Below are positions 311-55,662 of a DNA stretch of 64,000 nucleotides, in pieces. Position numbers and translations under genes: made by a program. The notes beneath the pieces were generated by a model, which ran no database searches, was not told the origin of the DNA, and worked only from the letters and a program-made list of their open reading frames with translations. This stretch comes from Eledone cirrhosa (lineage: Eukaryota). Positions within the stretch are counted from its first letter, which is position 1; each line of letters begins with the position of its first letter. The stretch lies in the NCBI GenBank assembly GCA_964016885.1, contig OZ024747.1, positions 67,828,001-67,892,000 of the forward strand. The letters run 5' to 3'.

Positions 311-2735
311 TTTTCTCTTTCTCTTAATTTCGAGTATATTTTTTTGACCGGCCACCTTCTTGGTGGCAAGGTTGTAAAAGAAAAGAAATTGTCATCCCTT
401 GAATCGCAAAAATGTTTTGCAAATTTTGAAGGTGCCAGCTATCGCAGCCATTTGTAGACTATGAATTAGGGAGCTGCGCTTTTTGTCCGCAAATCCAAGT
501 TCAGTCATACTTTGGTCCAAGCGGGTTGGTATATAACCCGTAGCACCAATAATGATGGGTATGAAGCTAAAGGTGTATCTTGGATACTGGATTTGTAAGC
601 TCCTCATCAATGGTCCGTAGATGTCCTCCTTCTCCTGTATTTTTCTGACAACGTTTACATCAAGTGGGCAACTGATCTCCACAACAGAACACGTTTTCAA
701 TGTGTGGTCCCAAGCAACAATATCAGGCCGGTTGTGCTTTAATTTGGTGGCAGTTTTATTTTCAGGTTCCACCAGTATTCCTTAGTGCCATCTGTCTCAA
801 TATATTCTTCCTCGTTTGTTGTTAATTTTGTTTTCCGAAGTGCGTTCCAGATGATTCTAGCTATCCCATCGTGTCTCATGGGGAGGTAGTAGCGAGATGA
901 CATTCTTTCGCAGATAGCAACAATGTGGCTTACATCCTCGATCTTTGTTTTACATAGCCTACATTTATTGTCAGCTGCTGGCCCTCCTCTTTTGTGCAGC
1001 AGATATTTGGTAGGGAGTTCTTGTTCCTGTATTGCATAGAGATATCCCTCAAGGTGTGATGTCATAAACTTGTCGGAACTCCATGCCAGGCTTTTTGAGT
1101 GGTTTATCCCCTCTATGGTCTGTGTTTTACGTCTCAAGTATCCATGCACAACTTTTTCTGTAAATTGGTCAATTTTTTCATCTTGTTTGAACATTGAATA
1201 GGATCTTCCGATTTCTCTGGGTGAGAGATTTATATCAGGCTTTATTCCATATCTCTCCTCCAGATCAGTCGCTATTCTAATGATATTTCTTTTTTCATGG
1301 TCATAAACCTGGGCAAGATGGTTGCCAACCTTTTTCCTCTGTTGAAGGTGTTGCTTCAGTGTTACTATCCGGGTCTCATATGTTGTTAATATTGATTTTA
1401 GACCCCGGCCACCTTCCTTGCGTGAGAAGTATAGCCTATCCACATCACCATTGATGTTAAAGTTCCCAGTAACACTGAGAAGCTTTCGAGTTCTAACATC
1501 CATCTCACTTAGTTCTTGCAATGACCAGTTCAGTAGGCCAAATGTTGGCGTTAGAATTGGCACAGCATAAGTATTGTGGGCAATGTATTTGTTGTATGCT
1601 GACAGTTCTGATGACCAGTTCCGGTTCTCTCTTTATTTATGGGTCCATCATATCTGACATTCTCATCCTGTCCAAGATATCTGTAGTTGTCACCTGACTG
1701 CAGAGGTTGTATTGTCAGGCCATTCATCTCTAGAGTTCTAGAGGAGGGCACAGCTCTTCCACGTTTTACTGCCAAATATGCACACTTGGACTCACCAAAT
1801 TTCATTTTGATGTCGGTTGAAAATTGTGTAATGAGGTCCAATTGTTTCTTGATGTCATTGATATTTGGCCCATACAACTTCAGGTCATCAACAAAGAAAA
1901 GATGGGTGATACTTCTGGGCCCGCTTCTTTGTCCACCTTGTTTCCTGAGTAGGTAAGATAGTGGATTCAGTGAGAGAACGAAGAGTAGCACTGACAAGCT
2001 ATCACCCTGAAAGATGCCCTTCTGGTAATGTATCTTATCAGTCTTAACCTGCTCCTTCTCACCTCTAAGGATCAAACTGGTGTACCAGTTCTTGGTCAGG
2101 CGTTCAACAGCAGCTACCAATGGTTGTGGGACTTTAGCTAACTGTAAAGCCTTAACAATCCACCCATGAGGTACACTATCAAATGCTTTTTGATAGTCCA
2201 GCCACACGACAGTCATGTTTCTGCGATTCTTTGTTGTTTTTTCCTGAATCATTTTGTTAGTTAGTAGGTGATCTATGCAACCCCACACCTCCCTCTTTCC
2301 ACCAGCTTGCTCAGGTGTTATGATGTTGTTGGTAGCACAGTGATCCTGTAAGAACAGGTTAAGGCACCCAGTATATAATTTATACATGATGTTTTGGCAG
2401 GCAATTGGGCGGTAATTTTTAGCAAGGGTGGTTTGGCTATTTTTGGGAATGAGGAGAGTAGAGGCAGTTGATAACCATCTGGGCAGTTCTTGTGTGCCCT
2501 TAATGGTTTCTGTAAACAGCCGTATGAGATCTTGCCGATAGAAAGTGAAATTATTCAACCAGTATCCTGTAATGAGGTCTGGGCCTGGTGATTTCCTATT
2601 CGACATTTTCTGTAGAGCTGTTTCCAGTATTGACCCATCTATGTCATATTGTTTTGTCTGGACATGTTGGCAGTAGTCCTGTTCCAGTTCTTTTAGCCAA
2701 TTAGCTTGTCTGTTGAATCCGTCATCCGTTTCCCA
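311..2735 (-). mobile_element. 5'-truncated R4/Dong-like non-LTR retrotransposon (RT + CCHC + restriction-like endonuclease)
   Basis: RT motifs (KSPGPD, NYRPIAC, WLDYQKAFDSVPH, GIFQGDSLS, HLFFVDDLKLY, YRYLG), CRLC..H..C..RHD zinc knuckle and RLE motif HNRPDIV..EISCP..K..Y. Short 3' UTR with a GCCACC/GGTGGC hairpin. Both ends abut (TATG)n. Confidence 0.9.
392..2735 (-). pseudogene. Frameshifted RT-RLE polyprotein (pieces 1551-2735, 739-~1620, 392-772)
   Basis: Three overlapping ORFs form one RT/thumb/CCHC/RLE protein. Frameshifts at ~1620 and ~760; copy 2 is in frame at the latter (WWNLKIKTATKLKHNRPD). The N-terminus of ORF 1551..2840 is translated microsatellite. Confidence 0.88.
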
Positions 2736-2941
2736 TGTATGTATGTATGTATGTATGTATGTATGTATGTATGTATGTATGTATGTATGTATGTATGTAT
2801 GTATGTATGCACCCATGTATGTATGTATGTATATACGCAAGTAAGTATGTATATATATATGTATGTCTGTATGTATATATGTATATATGTCTGTATGTAT
2901 ATATGTATGTATGTCTGTCTGTATGTATATATGTATGTCTG
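2736..2941. repeat. (TATG)n microsatellite between the two R4/Dong-like copies
   Basis: Directly visible tetranucleotide tract; similar tracts at 4001-4135, 4607-4672 and 5769-5838. Confidence 0.95.
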
Positions 2942-4000
2942 TTATCTCTTTCTCTTAATTTCGAGTATATTCTTTTGACCGGCCACCTTCCTTGTGGCAA
3001 GGTTGTAAAAGAAAAGAAATTGTCATCCCTTGAATCGCAAGAATGTTTTGCAAATTTTGAAGGTGCCAGCTATCGCAGCCATTTGTAGCCTATGAATTAG
3101 GGAGCTGCGCTCTTTGTGCGCAAATCCAAGTTCAGTCATACTTTGGTCCAAGAGGGTTGGTATATAACCCCTAGCTCCAATAATGATGGGTATGAAGCTA
3201 AAGGTGTATCTTGGATACTGGATTTGTAAACTCCTCATCAATGGTCCGTAGATGTCCTCCTTCTCCTGTATTTTTCTGACAACGTTTACATCAAGTGGGC
3301 AGCTGATCTTCACAACAGAACACGTTTTCAATGTGTGGTCCCAAACAACAATATCAGGCCGGTTGTGCTTTAATTTGGTGGCAGTTTTTATTTTCAGGTT
3401 CCACCAGTATTCCTTAGTGCCATCTGTCTCAATATATTCTTCCTCGTTTGTTGTTAATTTTGTTTTCCGAAGTGCGTTCCAGATGGTTCTAGCTATCCCA
3501 TCGTGTCTCATGGGGAGGTAGTAGCGAGATGACATTCTTTCGCAGCTGGCAACAATGTGGCTTACATCCTCGATTTTTGTTTTACATAGCTTACATTTAT
3601 TGTCAGCTGCTGGCCCTCCTCTTTTGTGCAGCAGATATTTGGTAGGGAGTTCTTGTTCCTGTATTGCATAGAGATATCCCTCAAGGTGTGATGTCATAAA
3701 CTTGTCGGAACTCCATGCCAGGCTTTTTGAGTGGTTTATCCCCTCTATGGTCTGTGTTTTACGTCTCAAGTATCCATGCACAACTTTTTCTGTAAATTGG
3801 TCAATTTTTTCATCTTGTTTGAACATTGAATAGGATCTTCCGATTTCTCTGGGTGAGAGATTTATATCAGGCTTTATTCCATATCTCTCCTCCAGATCAG
3901 TCGCTATTCTAATGATATATTTTTTTCATGCTCATAAACCTGGGCAAGATGGTTGCCAACCCTTTTCCTCTGTTGCATGTGTTGCTTCAGTGTTACTATC
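2942..4000 (-). mobile_element. Second, more 5'-truncated copy of the same R4/Dong-like element
   Basis: Highly similar to 311-1370, with the same 3' UTR. The truncation point at 4000 abuts (TATG)n. Confidence 0.92.
3023..3826 (-). CDS. C-terminal CCHC + RLE endonuclease part of the non-LTR element ORF (267 aa, truncated)
   Basis: CKLC..H..C, RHD, HNRPDIVVWD and KIQEKEDIY motifs in one open frame. Confidence 0.8.
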   Translation of the reverse strand: MFKQDEKIDQFTEKVVHGYLRRKTQTIEGINHSKSLAWSSDKFMTSHLEGYLYAIQEQELPTKYLLHKRGGPAADNKCKLCKTKIEDVSHIVASCERMSSRYYLPMRHDGIARTIWNALRKTKLTTNEEEYIETDGTKEYWWNLKIKTATKLKHNRPDIVVWDHTLKTCSVVKISCPLDVNVVRKIQEKEDIYGPLMRSLQIQYPRYTFSFIPIIIGARGYIPTLLDQSMTELGFAHKERSSLIHRLQMAAIAGTFKICKTFLRFKG

Positions 4001-10750: not shown

Positions 10751-10808
<58 letters not shown>

Positions 10809-10908
10809 TATGTGTTGGTTGTTTACCGACACCTCAGTATGCAGGTTGGAGCACTCGATGAAGTACGCAGGTTGGTTTGTTTACTCCGTAGTAATGTAAA
10901 ATAAGTAA

Positions 10909-11198
10909 GTCAAACATGTTTGGCTTCGTTTATTATAAATTCTCTGCTATCTATATTTCAGTGTCAATTCATCGATATGTCCAGAATCATATGATTCCAG
11001 TTCCGCGGAGGACTAACAGCACACCCAGGAGCTGGACATATCGATGAATTGACAGAGTGGAACACATTTCAACACCATGTTTACCTGTTCTTTTTACATT
11101 AATTCGTACTGTCTGATGAGGTCACACCCAATAATAGCTGTTACTGAAATATAGCAGAGAATTTATAATGAACGAAGTCAAATTTAACATGTTTGACA
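10909..11198 (+). mobile_element. Fold-back element with HHR motif at 11109-11157
   Basis: 10909-10984 is an internally deleted inverse of 11032-11198. HHR: CTGT-CTGATGA-ggtcaca..tgttact-GAAA-TA-TA-GCAG; same family as 8051. Confidence 0.65.
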
Positions 11199-11199
11199 T

Positions 11200-12075
11200 C
11201 TGATCCACCGAAACTCGGCCATTTCGGACCATACCAAAATCAACATACTGATTGCGGATTTGGTACGGGTGATGAGAAATGTGTCCCGCATGTGCAACCC
11301 CGAAGAACTAGAGAGACACATACAACACTTCATCCACCGTATGCAGTTCTCTGGCTACAATCAGAGAGATAGAATCAGAGTGTATAAAGGAGCCAGAACC
11401 AAATGGGAAAAAATGGTAAATAATGACATAAATGGGACCTGCCCCTTGTATAGGAGCAAATTTTGGAATAGAATAGAAAGAACTAAGAACAAAGCCAATA
11501 GAATAAACTCATGGTATGATAGCAATAAATACCAGAGTGTAATGTTCATCAATACAACCCCTAGAGGCGAACTAGCCTACAAATTTAGAAGGGCCCTAAA
11601 GAAACATAATCTCAATATTAAGATAGTAGAAAGACCTGGTACCTCCGTAAAAACACTTATTAGCAAGACATACCCGTTCCAAAGACCCTCATGTATAGAT
11701 AAGAAATGTATAACCTGTAAAATAAGCCCCCATATTAACTGTAAAACTAGAAATGTAGTATATAGCATAAGATGTACTGAAGGACAATGTAGAAACAAAA
11801 ATATAGTGTACATAGGTGAGACAGCTCGTAGTATAGGGGAACGAATAAATGAACACTGGCGAGACCTCCAAGATAGTAAAGAATCATCTGTGCTCTACCA
11901 ACATGCTAAGATAGAACACAGGGGTAAATTAGAGAGCATAGAAATAAAAATAGAATCCACACACAAGAAAGACGCAATGTTTAGGCAAATTACAGAGGCA
12001 GTAAGCATAAAAGAATTAAAACCAAAATTAAATAGAAAATATGAGTGGAACAGCAACATCACAACTTACAATTAA
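11200..12075 (+). CDS. Penelope-like retroelement ORF, 5'-truncated (RT thumb/linker + GIY-YIG endonuclease)
   Basis: Open frame from LIHRNSAIS..: SGY motif, C-x4-C-x2-C-x7-C linker, NVVYSIRC, YIGETARSIGERINEH, H..H, EAVSI..KPKLNRK.EW. Confidence 0.88.
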   Translation: MIHRNSAISDHTKINILIADLVRVMRNVSRMCNPEELERHIQHFIHRMQFSGYNQRDRIRVYKGARTKWEKMVNNDINGTCPLYRSKFWNRIERTKNKANRINSWYDSNKYQSVMFINTTPRGELAYKFRRALKKHNLNIKIVERPGTSVKTLISKTYPFQRPSCIDKKCITCKISPHINCKTRNVVYSIRCTEGQCRNKNIVYIGETARSIGERINEHWRDLQDSKESSVLYQHAKIEHRGKLESIEIKIESTHKKDAMFRQITEAVSIKELKPKLNRKYEWNSNITTYN

Positions 12076-12372
12076 GGACAAAATGAAAACACACACACAC
12101 ATAGAACAAACAACTTACAATTGAAAACACACACAAAATGAAAACACACACAAGACAAAATGAAAACACACACACACATAGAACAAACAACCAACCAACA
12201 ATAAATAAATAAATAAACAAACAAATATAAATAGAAAAATAGAAAAATGAACACAAACACACACAGACACCCGGATGTGGCGCATGCGCAAACTGAGCAC
12301 GCAACCCACACACAAACAAAATGGCGTAGGATAGAAGAAAGGAAAGGCACAGAAACGAAGAAAGAAATCCCC

Positions 12373-12417
12373 AGTCACTGAAGAGGTCACAGAGTGTGTG
12401 ACGAAAGAACTATGACT
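12373..12417 (+). ncRNA. Hammerhead motif in the 3' pLTR of the Penelope-like element
   Basis: AGTCA-CTGAAGA-gGTCACA..TGTGAC-GAAA-GAAC-TA-TGACT, followed by (TA)n. Confidence 0.7.
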
Positions 12418-13106
12418 ATATATATATAAACAACTATCTGGTTGTGGAACCAACCAACCAACCAGAAATTTATAAATTTGTAAATTTATAAATATATATT
12501 AAATTAAATTGAAGTGAAAGCAACTGGTGCGTGTGTTTCTTATTGGCAACATGACCCTCCCAAAGTATAACAATATCGGTTTCAACACACGATTTCAGAT
12601 AAAGAATCTTGCTAAACAAATTCAGAAACGAAATATATATATATATATATATGAGATGACTAAATTGGATATGATACCAGTTTCTTATCAAATGCGAAGA
12701 AGCTCGATGTATTAACTCCTTAGGAAAGGGCACAGAGCATAATTTTTTTTAAAATTATATATATACAGTGGTGGTGGAACTGGAGGGGGTTATGCCCCTC
12801 TCCAATAATTATGTTTTCCCAAACTACCAAAACACGCATCGATTTGGATATGCGCTACAATTTATGTACATGTATGCTTATCGCATAACGAACTTTCTGA
12901 CCCTTTTAGAATGCAAAGAGCTAAACTAATCTCTACAATTAAATTGTCCAAATTTGCGCCCCCCCCCCCCCCCCCCAATCGCCATTCAGAAATGCTTTCA
13001 CCACCCCTGAAAACATAGGTTAACTTCACGTGTAGGCTGTTTCCTTCACCAAAACAACGGGAACACTCGTCTTCAGAATCAACGGAGGATGAGTTACAAC
13101 ATACAT

Positions 13107-50003: not shown

Positions 50004-51194
50004 GTTATAGTGTTAAGGATACGGAGAGAAATAAAAATAAAAATAAAAATAAATAAAGAGAGGTAGAAAGAGATATAGGTGGTGGGAGAAAAGAGGTAGA
50101 TCGAGTAATATCTATTATACGAGGTGGGAGAGATAGGGGAGGGGTGAGATACAGGAGGTAGAGTTAAAACAGCCGATACATAAGTCCCGTCAAGTGTAGA
50201 GGGAGGAGGAGAAGAGATATATTCAGAAATAAAGATGATAGTTTTAAAATATTATGTTTCATCAGTCTATCAATTCTTATGAATTAGGTATTATAATGTA
50301 AATATCAATATTCATTAATGAGACACATATCAATAATGTGTGAAAGAATAATGACTATATGTTTAGTTTAAAATTTTTAGGTTTATAATCAAAATCTGAG
50401 ATAAAACTTCAAAAAAATACTGAAATATATAAGTATATATGTATTTTCATGAAAAAAGAAAAAGAAAAAAGAGAAAGAAAAAGAGAAGGTTATCTCAAAT
50501 TCAAGTTGACATTATAGACACACATGTGAGCTTACGTGATCAGCTCTGTAAATTTTTATTTCACATGAAAATCTTCATTGCGTTACAAAAGATTCTACCA
50601 TACATATATGTACATACATATATATATACATAAAATATATATTATTAATAATAATATTCTTGCCCTCTCTTACATGATTATCGTTCAAGCATAGAATAGA
50701 ACAGATATCAATATATTAAAAACGCCAAGAATATTTCACTCCCCAGAGTATCTAGGGCCGTAATAAAACACAGTGTGCCCGCATATCAATCACAGAAATC
50801 AACCCTTCCAATTTATTTGACAATATATTGCCAAGTTCATTAGAAGCGATCAGAATCAAAAGCAAACAAAACCAAAATTATTCAACAAAACTTATCTAGT
50901 AGAAATCATTCAAAAAAAACTTTAGGATACCCGGTTGTTCTACAGATGCTCTTATATTTATTATAGAAGTTTATCTAGCTTAACAATTTTATTCAATAGA
51001 TTGGGAGTATCACCATTTTAAGGTAGTTTAATTACATCATTAATTATATACTCATGAAGAAGGTTTAAAAAATTGAAGGAATCGAAAGATTATCGCCAAG
51101 TTTCATAAATAATTAAAAATCTAAAGTAAATATACTACATTTTAAATTTATATTTATATTTAAAAGTTGAGTTCAATCTATGTCTGCAGCAACA

Positions 51195-51751
<557 letters not shown>

Positions 51752-52047
51752 ATAAAAACAAATAACGAAACGAAATTAAACTTCGTTTCGTTTGTAACTC
51801 ACTTTTGTATGACTGACGCTTAAACAATTAAGTTAAAGATGTACATCCATATATGTATACTGAAATACTAGTATGTATATGAATACACACACGTATACAT
51901 ATGTAGATGTACCAAGTTTTTTCACTGGTCACTTTATTGTGAGTGGCCAGCTATTCTGTATGTTAACACACAGACAAACCGGTTTTTAGAGTCATACTGG
52001 TTTTTGAGGAAACACCTTTCCTCTATTCTCCAGAAAGCCAGACAAGG

Positions 52048-52092
52048 AATATTGAACTAGTTTCGTTGTTGTTACAACTCATCAGCAATATT
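52048..52092 (-). ncRNA. Type I hammerhead ribozyme (inverted unit)
   Basis: Reverse complement of the 52262 motif. Confidence 0.8.
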
Positions 52093-52261
52093 TACCTATC
52101 TTCCGGCCTCTCTAGAGAATCGTAAAAGCACATATCGTTATATGCTTTTTCTATGAAAATCACACTCTATGCAAATTAGTCTGCCCACTACTAATTTTCA
52201 TAGAAAAAGCATATAACGATATGTGCTTTTACGATTCTCTAGAGAGGCCGGAAGATAGGTA

Positions 52262-52306
52262 AATATTGCTGATGAGTTGTAACAACAACGAAACTAGTTC
52301 AATATT
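52262..52306 (+). ncRNA. Type I hammerhead ribozyme (unit 1)
   Basis: AATATTG-CTGATGA-GTTGT aaca ACAAC-GAAA-CTAG-TT-CAATATT: 7-bp stem I, 5-bp stem II, palindromic stem III (AACTAGTT). Confidence 0.85.
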
Positions 52307-52728
52307 CCTTGTCTGGCTTTCTGGAGAATAGAGGAAAGGTGTTTCCTCAAAAACCAGTATGACTCTAAAAACCGGTTTGTCTGTGTGTTAACATACAGAA
52401 TAGCTGGCCACTCACAATAAAGTGACCAGTGAAAAAACTTGGTACATCTACATATGTATACGTGTGTGTATTCATATACATACTAGTATTTCAGTATACA
52501 TATATGGATGTACATCTTTAACTTAATTGTTTAAGCGTCAGTCATACAAAAGTGAGTTACAAACGAAACGAAGTTTAATTTCGTTTCGTTATTTGTTTTT
52601 ATCGTCTCCGTTGAACCGGTACTTACTCACACTCTATGCAAATTAGTCTGCCCACTACTAATTTTCATAGAAAAAGCATATAATGATATGTGCTTTTACG
52701 ATTCTCTAGAGAGGCCGGAAGATAGGTA

Positions 52729-52773
52729 AATATTGCTGATGAGTTGTAACAACAACGAAACTAGTTCAATATT
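52729..52773 (+). ncRNA. Type I hammerhead ribozyme (unit 2)
   Basis: Identical to 52262-52306, offset +467 bp. Confidence 0.85.
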
Positions 52774-53195
52774 CCTTGTCTGGCTTTCTGGAGAATAGAG
52801 GAAAGGTGTTTCCTCAAAAACCAGTATGACTCTAAAAACCGGTTTGTCTGTGTGTTAACATACAGAATAGCTGGCCACTCACAATAAAGTGACCAGTGAA
52901 AAAACTTGGTACATCTACATATGTATACGTGTGTGTATTCATATACATACTAGTATTTCAGTATACATATATGGATGTACATCTTTAACTTAATTGTTTA
53001 AGCGTCAGTCATACAAAAGTGAGTTACAAACGAAACGAAGTTTAATTTCGTTTCGTTATTTGTTTTTATCGTCTCCGTTGAACCGGTACTTACTCACACT
53101 CTATGCAAATTAGTCTGCCCACTACTAATTTTCATAGAAAAAGCATATAACGATATGTGCTTTTACGATTCTCTAGAGAGGCCGGAAGATAGGTA

Positions 53196-53240
53196 AATAT
53201 TGCTGATGAGTTGTAACAACAACGAAACTAGTTCAATATT
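53196..53240 (+). ncRNA. Type I hammerhead ribozyme (unit 3)
   Basis: Identical to 52262-52306, offset +934 bp. Confidence 0.85.
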
Positions 53241-53468
53241 CCTTGTCTGGCTTTCTGGAGAATAGAGGAAAGGTGTTTCCTCAAAAACCAGTATGACTCT
53301 AAAAACCGGTTTGTCTGTGTGTTAACATACAGAATAGCTGGCCACTCACAATAAAGTGACCAGTGAAAAAACTTGGTACATCTACATATGTATACGTGTG
53401 TGTATTCATATACATACTAGTATTTCAGTATACATATATGGATGTACATCTTTAACTTAATTGTTTAA

Positions 53469-54976
<1,508 letters not shown>

Positions 54977-55662
54977 TACATTATGAAGAGAGAGGAAACA
55001 TTTAGATATAGTTAGTAATAAAAAGTATCATACCTAAGCTGCTCCTAAATTCCTCGACTACGTAGTTTCGTGGCATAAACAAAAACAATATATCAAAGAT
55101 ATAGAGTCCTTGCGAGGTCTGCCGACTTATCAAGAGGATACCTCATTTTACTAGTCTCAAGAACGCGTCTACACGACGTGAGAAAGAATCCCAAAAGGCG
55201 GAGGGGGAGATAGTCACGCGATATAACGGTCGAGAAACAGAGCTAAGCCTCTTATAACCACGAAGAAAATACCACGGAGGCGGAGGGGGTATTCATATCG
55301 AGGCCGTAGAAGAGGTGGTGAAGAAGGCGAAAAGTATGAGTAATGGAAGCTTTCCAGTTGTCCCCACACTTCAAAGATTGCTCGACCAGAGGGAGTTATT
55401 AACAATATATTTAGAAACACACAGATACATGCGGACACACACATATATACATGAATGCATCCGCACCCAACTGTGAGTTAAGGGTGTCAACTTCACCGAT
55501 GTTGCTCAATGAATGACTGGGACAGACCAATTCAGTTGAACTAGACTGAACCAGTATCAGAGTTAAAAATACATTATGAAGAGAGAAGAAACATTTAGAT
55601 ATAGTTAGTAATAAAAAGTATCATACCTAAGCTGCTCCTAAACTCACAGTTGGGTGCGGATG

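Follow-up and report, generated by a model that had tools for sequence, protein, structure and literature searches.

A locus in the 3.0-Gb genome of Eledone cirrhosa is a young insertion and probably a new animal non-LTR retrozyme, the insertions of which provide genomic evidence for the circular RNA template that has been hypothesized for such elements.

Organization of the 467-bp array

The window, a 64,000-bp stretch of contig OZ024747.1 (assembly GCA_964016885.1, positions 67,828,001 to 67,892,000 of the forward strand), contains the array between two (TA)n tracts (Table 1). The first-pass annotation had described 2.8 head-to-tail units and an inverted 409-bp unit, and this description is exact. 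TRF detects the tandem arm with a period of 467 bp (99%), and the inverted arm is 100% complementary to 52194–52602. In a unit numbering that starts with u1 at 52160, the single base that is common to both arms, the inverted arm is a perfect copy of u35–443. The arms diverge from a junction of their RNA 5′ ends. The units had also been called virtually identical, with one substitution noticed; the sole difference between them is indeed that C>T at 52684, which is located in a CpG and likely arose after insertion. In agreement with the earlier placement of the array inside long TA tracts, (TA)n repeats flank both arms (51194–51754 and 53469–54978 in TRF). The (TA)n flanks are very long and patterned at some insertions, reaching up to ~3 kb, as in the tracts 51194–51751 and 53469–54978 of the window and at loci L065 and L089; such flanks may have expanded during or after insertion.

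Table 1 Features of the retrozyme locus and its flanks (positions in the window).
Feature	Coordinates	Strand	Basis
Left (TA)n target tract	51194..51751	.	TRF, sequence
Inverted arm, u35–443, ending on its outer side at the long (tailed) priming site u443	51752..52160	-	sequence; commonest family end
PLE-type tail u376–443, at the end of the inverted arm only, with the hairpin AACGAAACGAA/TTCGTTTCGTT inside	51752..51819	-	
Type I hammerhead of the inverted arm; predicted cut 52055/52054	52048..52092	-	
Tandem arm of 2.8 units, ending on its outer side at the short priming site u375	52160..53468	+	TRF, sequence
Octamer-like hairpin block ATGCAAAT, conserved in sister families B and C	52168..52202	+	
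Type I hammerhead 1, palindromic stem III (ACUAGU); predicted cut 52299/52300	52262..52306	+	
Predicted 467-nt cut-to-cut monomer (template RNA)	52300..52766	+	inferred from motifs, fold
Single C>T at CpG	52684..52684	+	
Type I hammerhead 2; predicted cut 52766/52767	52729..52773	+	
Type I hammerhead 3; predicted cut 53233/53234	53196..53240	+	
Right (TA)n target tract	53469..54978	.	TRF

The unit is non-coding, as had been noted from the sequence: the longest frame starting from ATG in the circularized unit is 38 residues long, and the longest frame free of stop codons has 62 residues. Its GC content of 35% is below the 45% that limits non-LTR retrozymes. A comparison of the unit with Rfam yielded no match at the gathering score. 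The claim of one hammerhead with a canonical core and a palindromic stem III per unit is borne out by four type I motifs, which start at +52262, +52729, +53196, and -52092. They have the order AATATTG-CUGAUGA-stem II-GAAA-CUAG-UU-CAAUAUU, with a proximal stem I of 7 bp, a stem II of 5 bp, and ACUAGU as stem III. Cleavage is predicted to occur after GUU, between u140 and u141. The cut-to-cut monomer has a predicted folding energy of -155.4 kcal/mol, which relative to shuffled sequences corresponds to a z-score of -8.9 for the linear form and -11 for the circular form.

Among seven related sequences, six of the 17 base pairs of the ribozyme are altered on both sides, in a comparison in which kinship of the sequences inflates the shuffle control, and the core is invariant except for position 7. 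Among 545 motif hits, some of which are counted twice in overlapping stretches, G never occurs at position 17, where U, A, and C are all found. These patterns support, without proving, that the ribozyme is under selection.

Abundance of the family and its relatives

A 33-nt string from the ribozyme has 4,997 exact matches in the genome, whereas the reversed string has none; therefore, the ribozyme motif is not a product of chance. The first 100 matches belong to 27 loci, and extrapolation to all 4,997 gives an estimate of ~1,350 loci. The family is dispersed over many contigs. Given its abundance and the type I hammerhead of every unit, it conforms to the retrozyme identity that had been proposed from one locus. 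A unit that was only the pLTR of a full PLE would have contradicted that proposal; no PLE ORF joined to the unit was found in 67 stretches scanned for ORFs, nor among the ORFs listed for 20 further stretches of the superfamily. The independent amplification of the 467-bp unit is evident.

Two sister families, B and C, have the ribozyme in common with the 467-bp family, as well as its octamer-like block at the 5′ end, and the three together account for 21,141 pattern matches. The units of B and C (~430–480 bp; L056 500–3200 and L115–L133) likewise form two arms with a homologous tail. The genome additionally contains a 310-bp hammerhead tandem family near position 66 of L033. Further hammerhead families number at least eight, and some of these reside in the pLTRs of PLEs. 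The G allele at u414, which marks a young subfamily and is present at position 52573 of the window, has less than 1% of the contig depth in run X1 of organism A, which hints weakly at a lineage restriction of the youngest burst.

Newt satellite 2, a tandem hammerhead repeat that acts as a dimer and resembles the 467-bp family in this respect, has an internal promoter containing an octamer. A literature search returned no paper on that promoter. The octamer-like block may represent a promoter of the snRNA type. All three U2 genes of E. cirrhosa that were read lack an octamer within 600 bp, unlike the newt promoter, and the one U6 gene that was read has an octamer at -76.

Insertions have two arms and two fixed ends

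Two sets of loci were compared. Set 1 consists of 65 loci: besides the window, it includes 36 taken in order of similarity, 26 taken in chromosome order, and two others. The replicate set of 39 loci is drawn mainly from an older subfamily. In two of the three locus samples, similarity to a query determined the ranking of the loci, so that these samples are non-random. The divergent two-arm layout is present in 75 of the 104 loci, 62 of which pair an end near u443 with one near u370. In set 1, a script identified 46 loci as two-armed, a number that includes one false call (L089), and 41 of them combine an end near u443 with an end within u363–376. The corresponding numbers in the replicate are 29 of 39 loci and 21 pairings. 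Several loci classified as one-armed have a second arm shorter than 40 nt.

The two 3′ ends are fixed and ~70 nt apart, which gives the family a tail of 68–77 nt. Position u443 is the commonest arm end (54/109), and 103 of 106 arm ends adjoin (TA)n. By contrast, the central junctions are freely variable; overlaps by microhomology, mostly of 1–5 nt, are present at 28 of 50. A T>A change three bases from the ends occurs in 25 of 137 terminal units and in none of 944 internal ones. Because the change is confined to terminal units, the (TA)n target primer likely anneals to the RNA. An inverted 5′-truncated copy with a tail at one end and a (TA)n target are features of PLE insertions. The first-pass annotation had read the inverted end as a PLE signature, and the recurrence of the two ends across the family strengthens this reading. 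It is very likely that the family depends on PLEs for its mobility.

At least one cut site is crossed by 144 of 157 arms (97/106 in set 1 and 47/51 in the replicate). Therefore, a single linear monomer that is read once is not the usual template, and the template must be a circle, a monomer with a jump between its ends, or an uncut multimer. The number of units in an arm does not record the laps of the RT, because many long arms contain mosaics with periods of two to four units, largely restricted to one arm of the locus (L041, L065, L086, J090, L166, L188, J199, and L201), which are products of DNA-level duplication. Arm length is thus in part the result of later expansion of the DNA, which an earlier reading had missed. 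Dimer circles were considered as the origin of arrays with a period of two and set aside, since L086 is a plain duplication of 934 bp, although they fit L041 loosely. An origin of the family by DNA-only rolling-circle or satellite amplification was also rejected, since it explains neither the fixed tail ends nor the A>G changes on the RNA strand. At L059, 600 nt of the tandem 3′ region of another repeat (3176–3775) are trapped between the arms; the repeat from which this segment derives is one-directional, and the segment does not represent a partner element.

Putative footprints of ribozyme cleavage

Two loci terminate at the predicted cut. Locus L094 begins exactly at u141 and joins u141 to u113 and to u112, by one jump each, and L170 ends at u139 against (TA)n. 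Of 158 5′ ends, 20 are located in u141–170 and one in u111–140, a window that was selected after set 1 had been viewed, and the skew is weaker in set 2 (6 versus 1, n = 58). Among the units that span the cut, 287 of 289 have no indel there. The two loci and the skew of the 5′ ends suggest that the predicted cut is used in vivo. The two differing junctions of L094 and a shift in editing near the cut in L059 show that linear or nicked templates and jumps occur. Next to the cleaved 5′ end of L094 (4285–4734, minus strand) are five to six copies of a CCTTGT-like repeat, which may have been produced by slippage of the RT and are reminiscent of telomerase-type reiteration.

A>G changes are fixed within insertions

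Variants were scored on the ribozyme strand and were called fixed if all copies of a locus carried them and none of the five nearest loci did. Unit positions 244–252 and 268/270–281 were masked, and 30 nt and 10 nt were trimmed from segment ends. Fixed variants of set 1 include 26 A>G and 3 T>C changes (n = 42), and those of the replicate 11 and 1 (n = 17), or 9 and 1 without J199, which has no close neighbors and was left out of the pooled count. By contrast, variants within arrays have no such excess: there are 10 A>G and 16 T>C in set 1 without L059 (n = 139), 27 and 28 in the replicate (n = 250), and 37 and 44 in the pool without L059. Inclusion of the hyper-edited L059 changes the count of set 1 to 52 and 16 (n = 183). 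The contrast between fixed and within-array variants has a pooled Fisher p of 2.6e-6, or 0.002 with L059, where the fixed variants are not independent because some form clusters and L050 and L095 are sister loci; counted by locus, A>G prevails 23 to 4 (p = 1.4e-4). Since the two arms lie on opposite DNA strands, the excess of A>G is not a sequencing bias. The private variants of 30 autonomous PLE copies, a control diluted by mutation after insertion, show no excess of A>G (25 versus 35).

Fixed variants are found on both arms in 30 of 42 cases in set 1 and in 10 of 17 in the replicate, even in short arrays such as L048. In L077, each of the 19 copies that were scored, on either arm, carries three A>G changes within 6 nt. 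An A>G pattern that avoids a 5′-G is typical of ADAR-like editing. At L059, 42 of 44 changes are A>G and none follows a G, which indicates that ADAR-like editing reaches the retrozyme RNA. The fixed A>G sites are weakly depleted of a 5′-G (p = 0.08), and 17 of 25 are paired in the fold, a non-significant difference from the 92 of 149 other A residues. Because the excess of fixed A>G is absent within arrays, the simplest reading is that editing occurred on one monomer RNA, which was then copied repeatedly, so that an A-to-I edit of a single monomer would be transmitted to all units of both arms when the insertion was born. The arms of L073 differ in haplotype, and L036, L167, and L188 contain haplotype patches. 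A template of one monomer for each insertion is likely.

Candidate partner elements

A near-complete young PLE at L070 (5240–8980) has a 727-residue frame starting from ATG with a YRDD motif, a C-terminal Cys and GIY-like region, an inverted pLTR, and a hammerhead with the palindrome TGCGCA. Neither Pfam nor PDB gave its protein a name, and we take it to be a PLE protein from its YRDD and Cys/GIY-like motifs. The family of this autonomous element is young, with 150 matches of 94–100% identity, and inserts into (TA)n with short and long ends as the retrozyme does, with a tail of ~95 nt. From this common footprint we infer that a PLE protein mobilizes the retrozyme, and the L070 family is a candidate partner. 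The tail of the retrozyme can be aligned with the L070 element in register with its short end, at an uncorrected p of ~0.02 that is non-significant among 21 ends, and an unrelated end scores as high. Low-stringency BLAST, a census of hammerheads, an HMM of the tail, and a catalog of ends abutting TA identified no partner PLE with clear homology.

The window itself contains a 5′-truncated PLE (10800–12630) with a GIY-YIG-like ORF (11197–12075, plus strand), a hammerhead near 12378, a hammerhead-like piece at ~11106, and a short and a long 3′ end of its own. Two partial copies of a non-LTR retrotransposon of the RT/REL type are located at 392–3925 on the minus strand.

Model of insertion and alternative templates

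The reading that we favor is that one 467-bp retrozyme insertion is produced by a borrowed PLE RT and endonuclease, as two cDNAs of one monomer RNA, probably a circle. A retrozyme array would be transcribed, and dimeric hammerheads would cleave the transcript after u140. A host ligase would close the monomer, which may at times undergo A-to-I editing. The PLE protein would cleave both strands of (TA)n, and each (TA)n 3′ end would pair over 3–4 bases at u443 or near u370. Each RT would then circle the template over a variable distance, and microhomology would join the two cDNA ends. DNA-level duplication would later extend some arms.

That the template is covalently closed is the more probable form of this model, although an unlikely variant differs from it in one step only: the ends of a nicked linear monomer would be held by stem I, and the RT would jump from u141 to u140. 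The paired ends of the monomer in the fold, the jumps of L094 from u141 to u113 and u112, and the clustering of 5′ ends directly past the cut agree with the variant, which predicts the fixation of A>G equally well, and a precise jump of this kind is indistinguishable from a circle in the DNA. The two jumps that were observed are nevertheless imprecise, whereas nearly all units that span the cut have no indel, and circles are documented for other animal retrozymes (PMC7229834). Somewhat less probable again is an uncleaved linear multimer transcribed from master arrays, with uniformity of the units achieved later by duplication and conversion of the DNA. Duplications are frequent in long arms, L059 and L073 are heterogeneous, cleavage was dispensable for one PLE in vitro (PMC11167929), and eight of nine Xenopus dimers remained uncleaved in vitro (bioRxiv 10.64898/2026.07.22.740005). 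Edits of a multimer should, however, start in single units, and the corresponding excess of A>G within arrays is absent outside L059; DNA turnover is moreover mostly limited to one arm, whereas the fixed variants of both sets are predominantly found on both.

It is very improbable that the unit belongs to a rare autonomous PLE as its pLTR, with the arrays as truncated products of that element. Such hammerheads are present in PLE pLTRs (PMC4209133), Xenopus retrozymes match pLTRs (bioRxiv 10.64898/2026.07.22.740005), and the stretches that were read represent about a tenth of the estimated loci. Set against this are the seamless unit-unit joins, the lack of an ORF joined to the unit in the scanned stretches, and the nearby PLEs, which carry pLTRs of their own. 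An assembly artefact has a negligible probability: the fixed ends and variable junctions recur over ~100 loci, variants follow the strand of the element on both arms, and the unit is present in sequencing runs of four other organisms. Unit-bearing contigs of sequencing runs do not bridge the junction of the locus, which proves neither view.

Relationship to known elements

The comparisons that follow refer to the open-access main texts of the cited papers. Non-LTR retrozymes have been described from coral, mussel, and axolotl (Cervera and de la Pena 2020, PMC7229834) and from vertebrates (Li, Clavereau and Pollet 2026, bioRxiv 10.64898/2026.07.22.740005). They are likewise tandem repeats of low GC content without ORFs, every unit of which contains a type I hammerhead, and are dispersed in thousands of copies; Amex1 of axolotl has a weak palindromic stem III similar to that of the 467-bp unit. 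Units reported previously are 170–400 nt (PMC7229834) or 51–972 bp (bioRxiv 10.64898/2026.07.22.740005) long. RNA circles have been shown in animal retrozymes (PMC7229834), whereas the 467-nt family is known here from DNA. Newt satellite 2 was the first animal hammerhead repeat (PMC7229834). Retrozymes of plants, which have type III hammerheads, LTRs, PBS/PPT, and a 4-bp target site duplication, were rejected as a class for the locus, since its hammerheads are of type I and its units are in tandem without a pair of LTRs.

Mobilization by PLEs has been proposed for them (PMC7229834, bioRxiv 10.64898/2026.07.22.740005), and a circular template has been proposed but not shown (PMC7229834, bioRxiv 10.64898/2026.07.22.740005, PMC4209133). 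The word "inverted" is absent from the available text of PMC7229834, and neither a two-arm (TA)n footprint nor fixed A>G is described for retrozymes in the open-access main texts; supplements may list such families. Searches of the open-access literature likewise yielded no report of such a footprint or of an editing signal in retrozymes. Insertions of EN+ PLEs include a truncated copy in inverted orientation, and a tail is present at just one of their ends (Craig et al. 2021, PMC8557442); a PLE studied in vitro has two adjacent RT start sites that bound the tail and primes both DNA strands (Frangieh et al. 2024, PMC11167929). The 467-bp family shares with EN+ PLEs the inverted 5′-truncated copy, the tail at one end, the microsatellite target, and the hammerhead, and its footprint matches the two start sites and the priming of both strands. 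Unlike EN+ PLEs, it has no RT or endonuclease ORF, can have many units in both arms, and has a tail of 68–77 nt rather than 30–40. Target homology of 3–4 bases is indicated here, whereas the start site of the anole PLE is described as non-homologous. An autonomous PLE was rejected as an identity for the locus, since no ORF combining RT and GIY-YIG is present there or joined to the unit in the scanned stretches. Chlamys elements such as MRC1 (PMC8557442) are non-autonomous, PLE-dependent, and multicopy in head-to-tail order, as here; however, their 3′ ends are similar to that of their partner and most of them have no hammerhead, whereas the 467-bp family has no clear homology to a partner.

Implications for retrozymes and PLEs

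The role of PLE hammerheads has been called unclear (PMC8557442), and the use of animal retrozyme circles as templates of the PLE RT has to date been a hypothesis (PMC4209133, PMC7229834). The 467-bp retrozyme is replicated genomic evidence bearing on this unsettled mechanistic question. It provides a DNA-level test of the circle-template hypothesis, in which two exact priming sites and the target are named. Owing to the youth of the family, the 467-nt RNA, the (TA)n substrate, and a resident PLE protein could be assayed together. The family suggests an origin of the tandem-plus-inverted structure of PLEs, and also that RNA editing is inherited through a retroelement. The chances are about even that each insertion is the fossil of one ADAR-edited RNA circle read by two Penelope RTs simultaneously, that more than a thousand such single-molecule records exist, and that editing is the chief source of heritable change in the family. 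If this is true, the genome archives rolling-circle TPRT together with RNA editing in the germ line.
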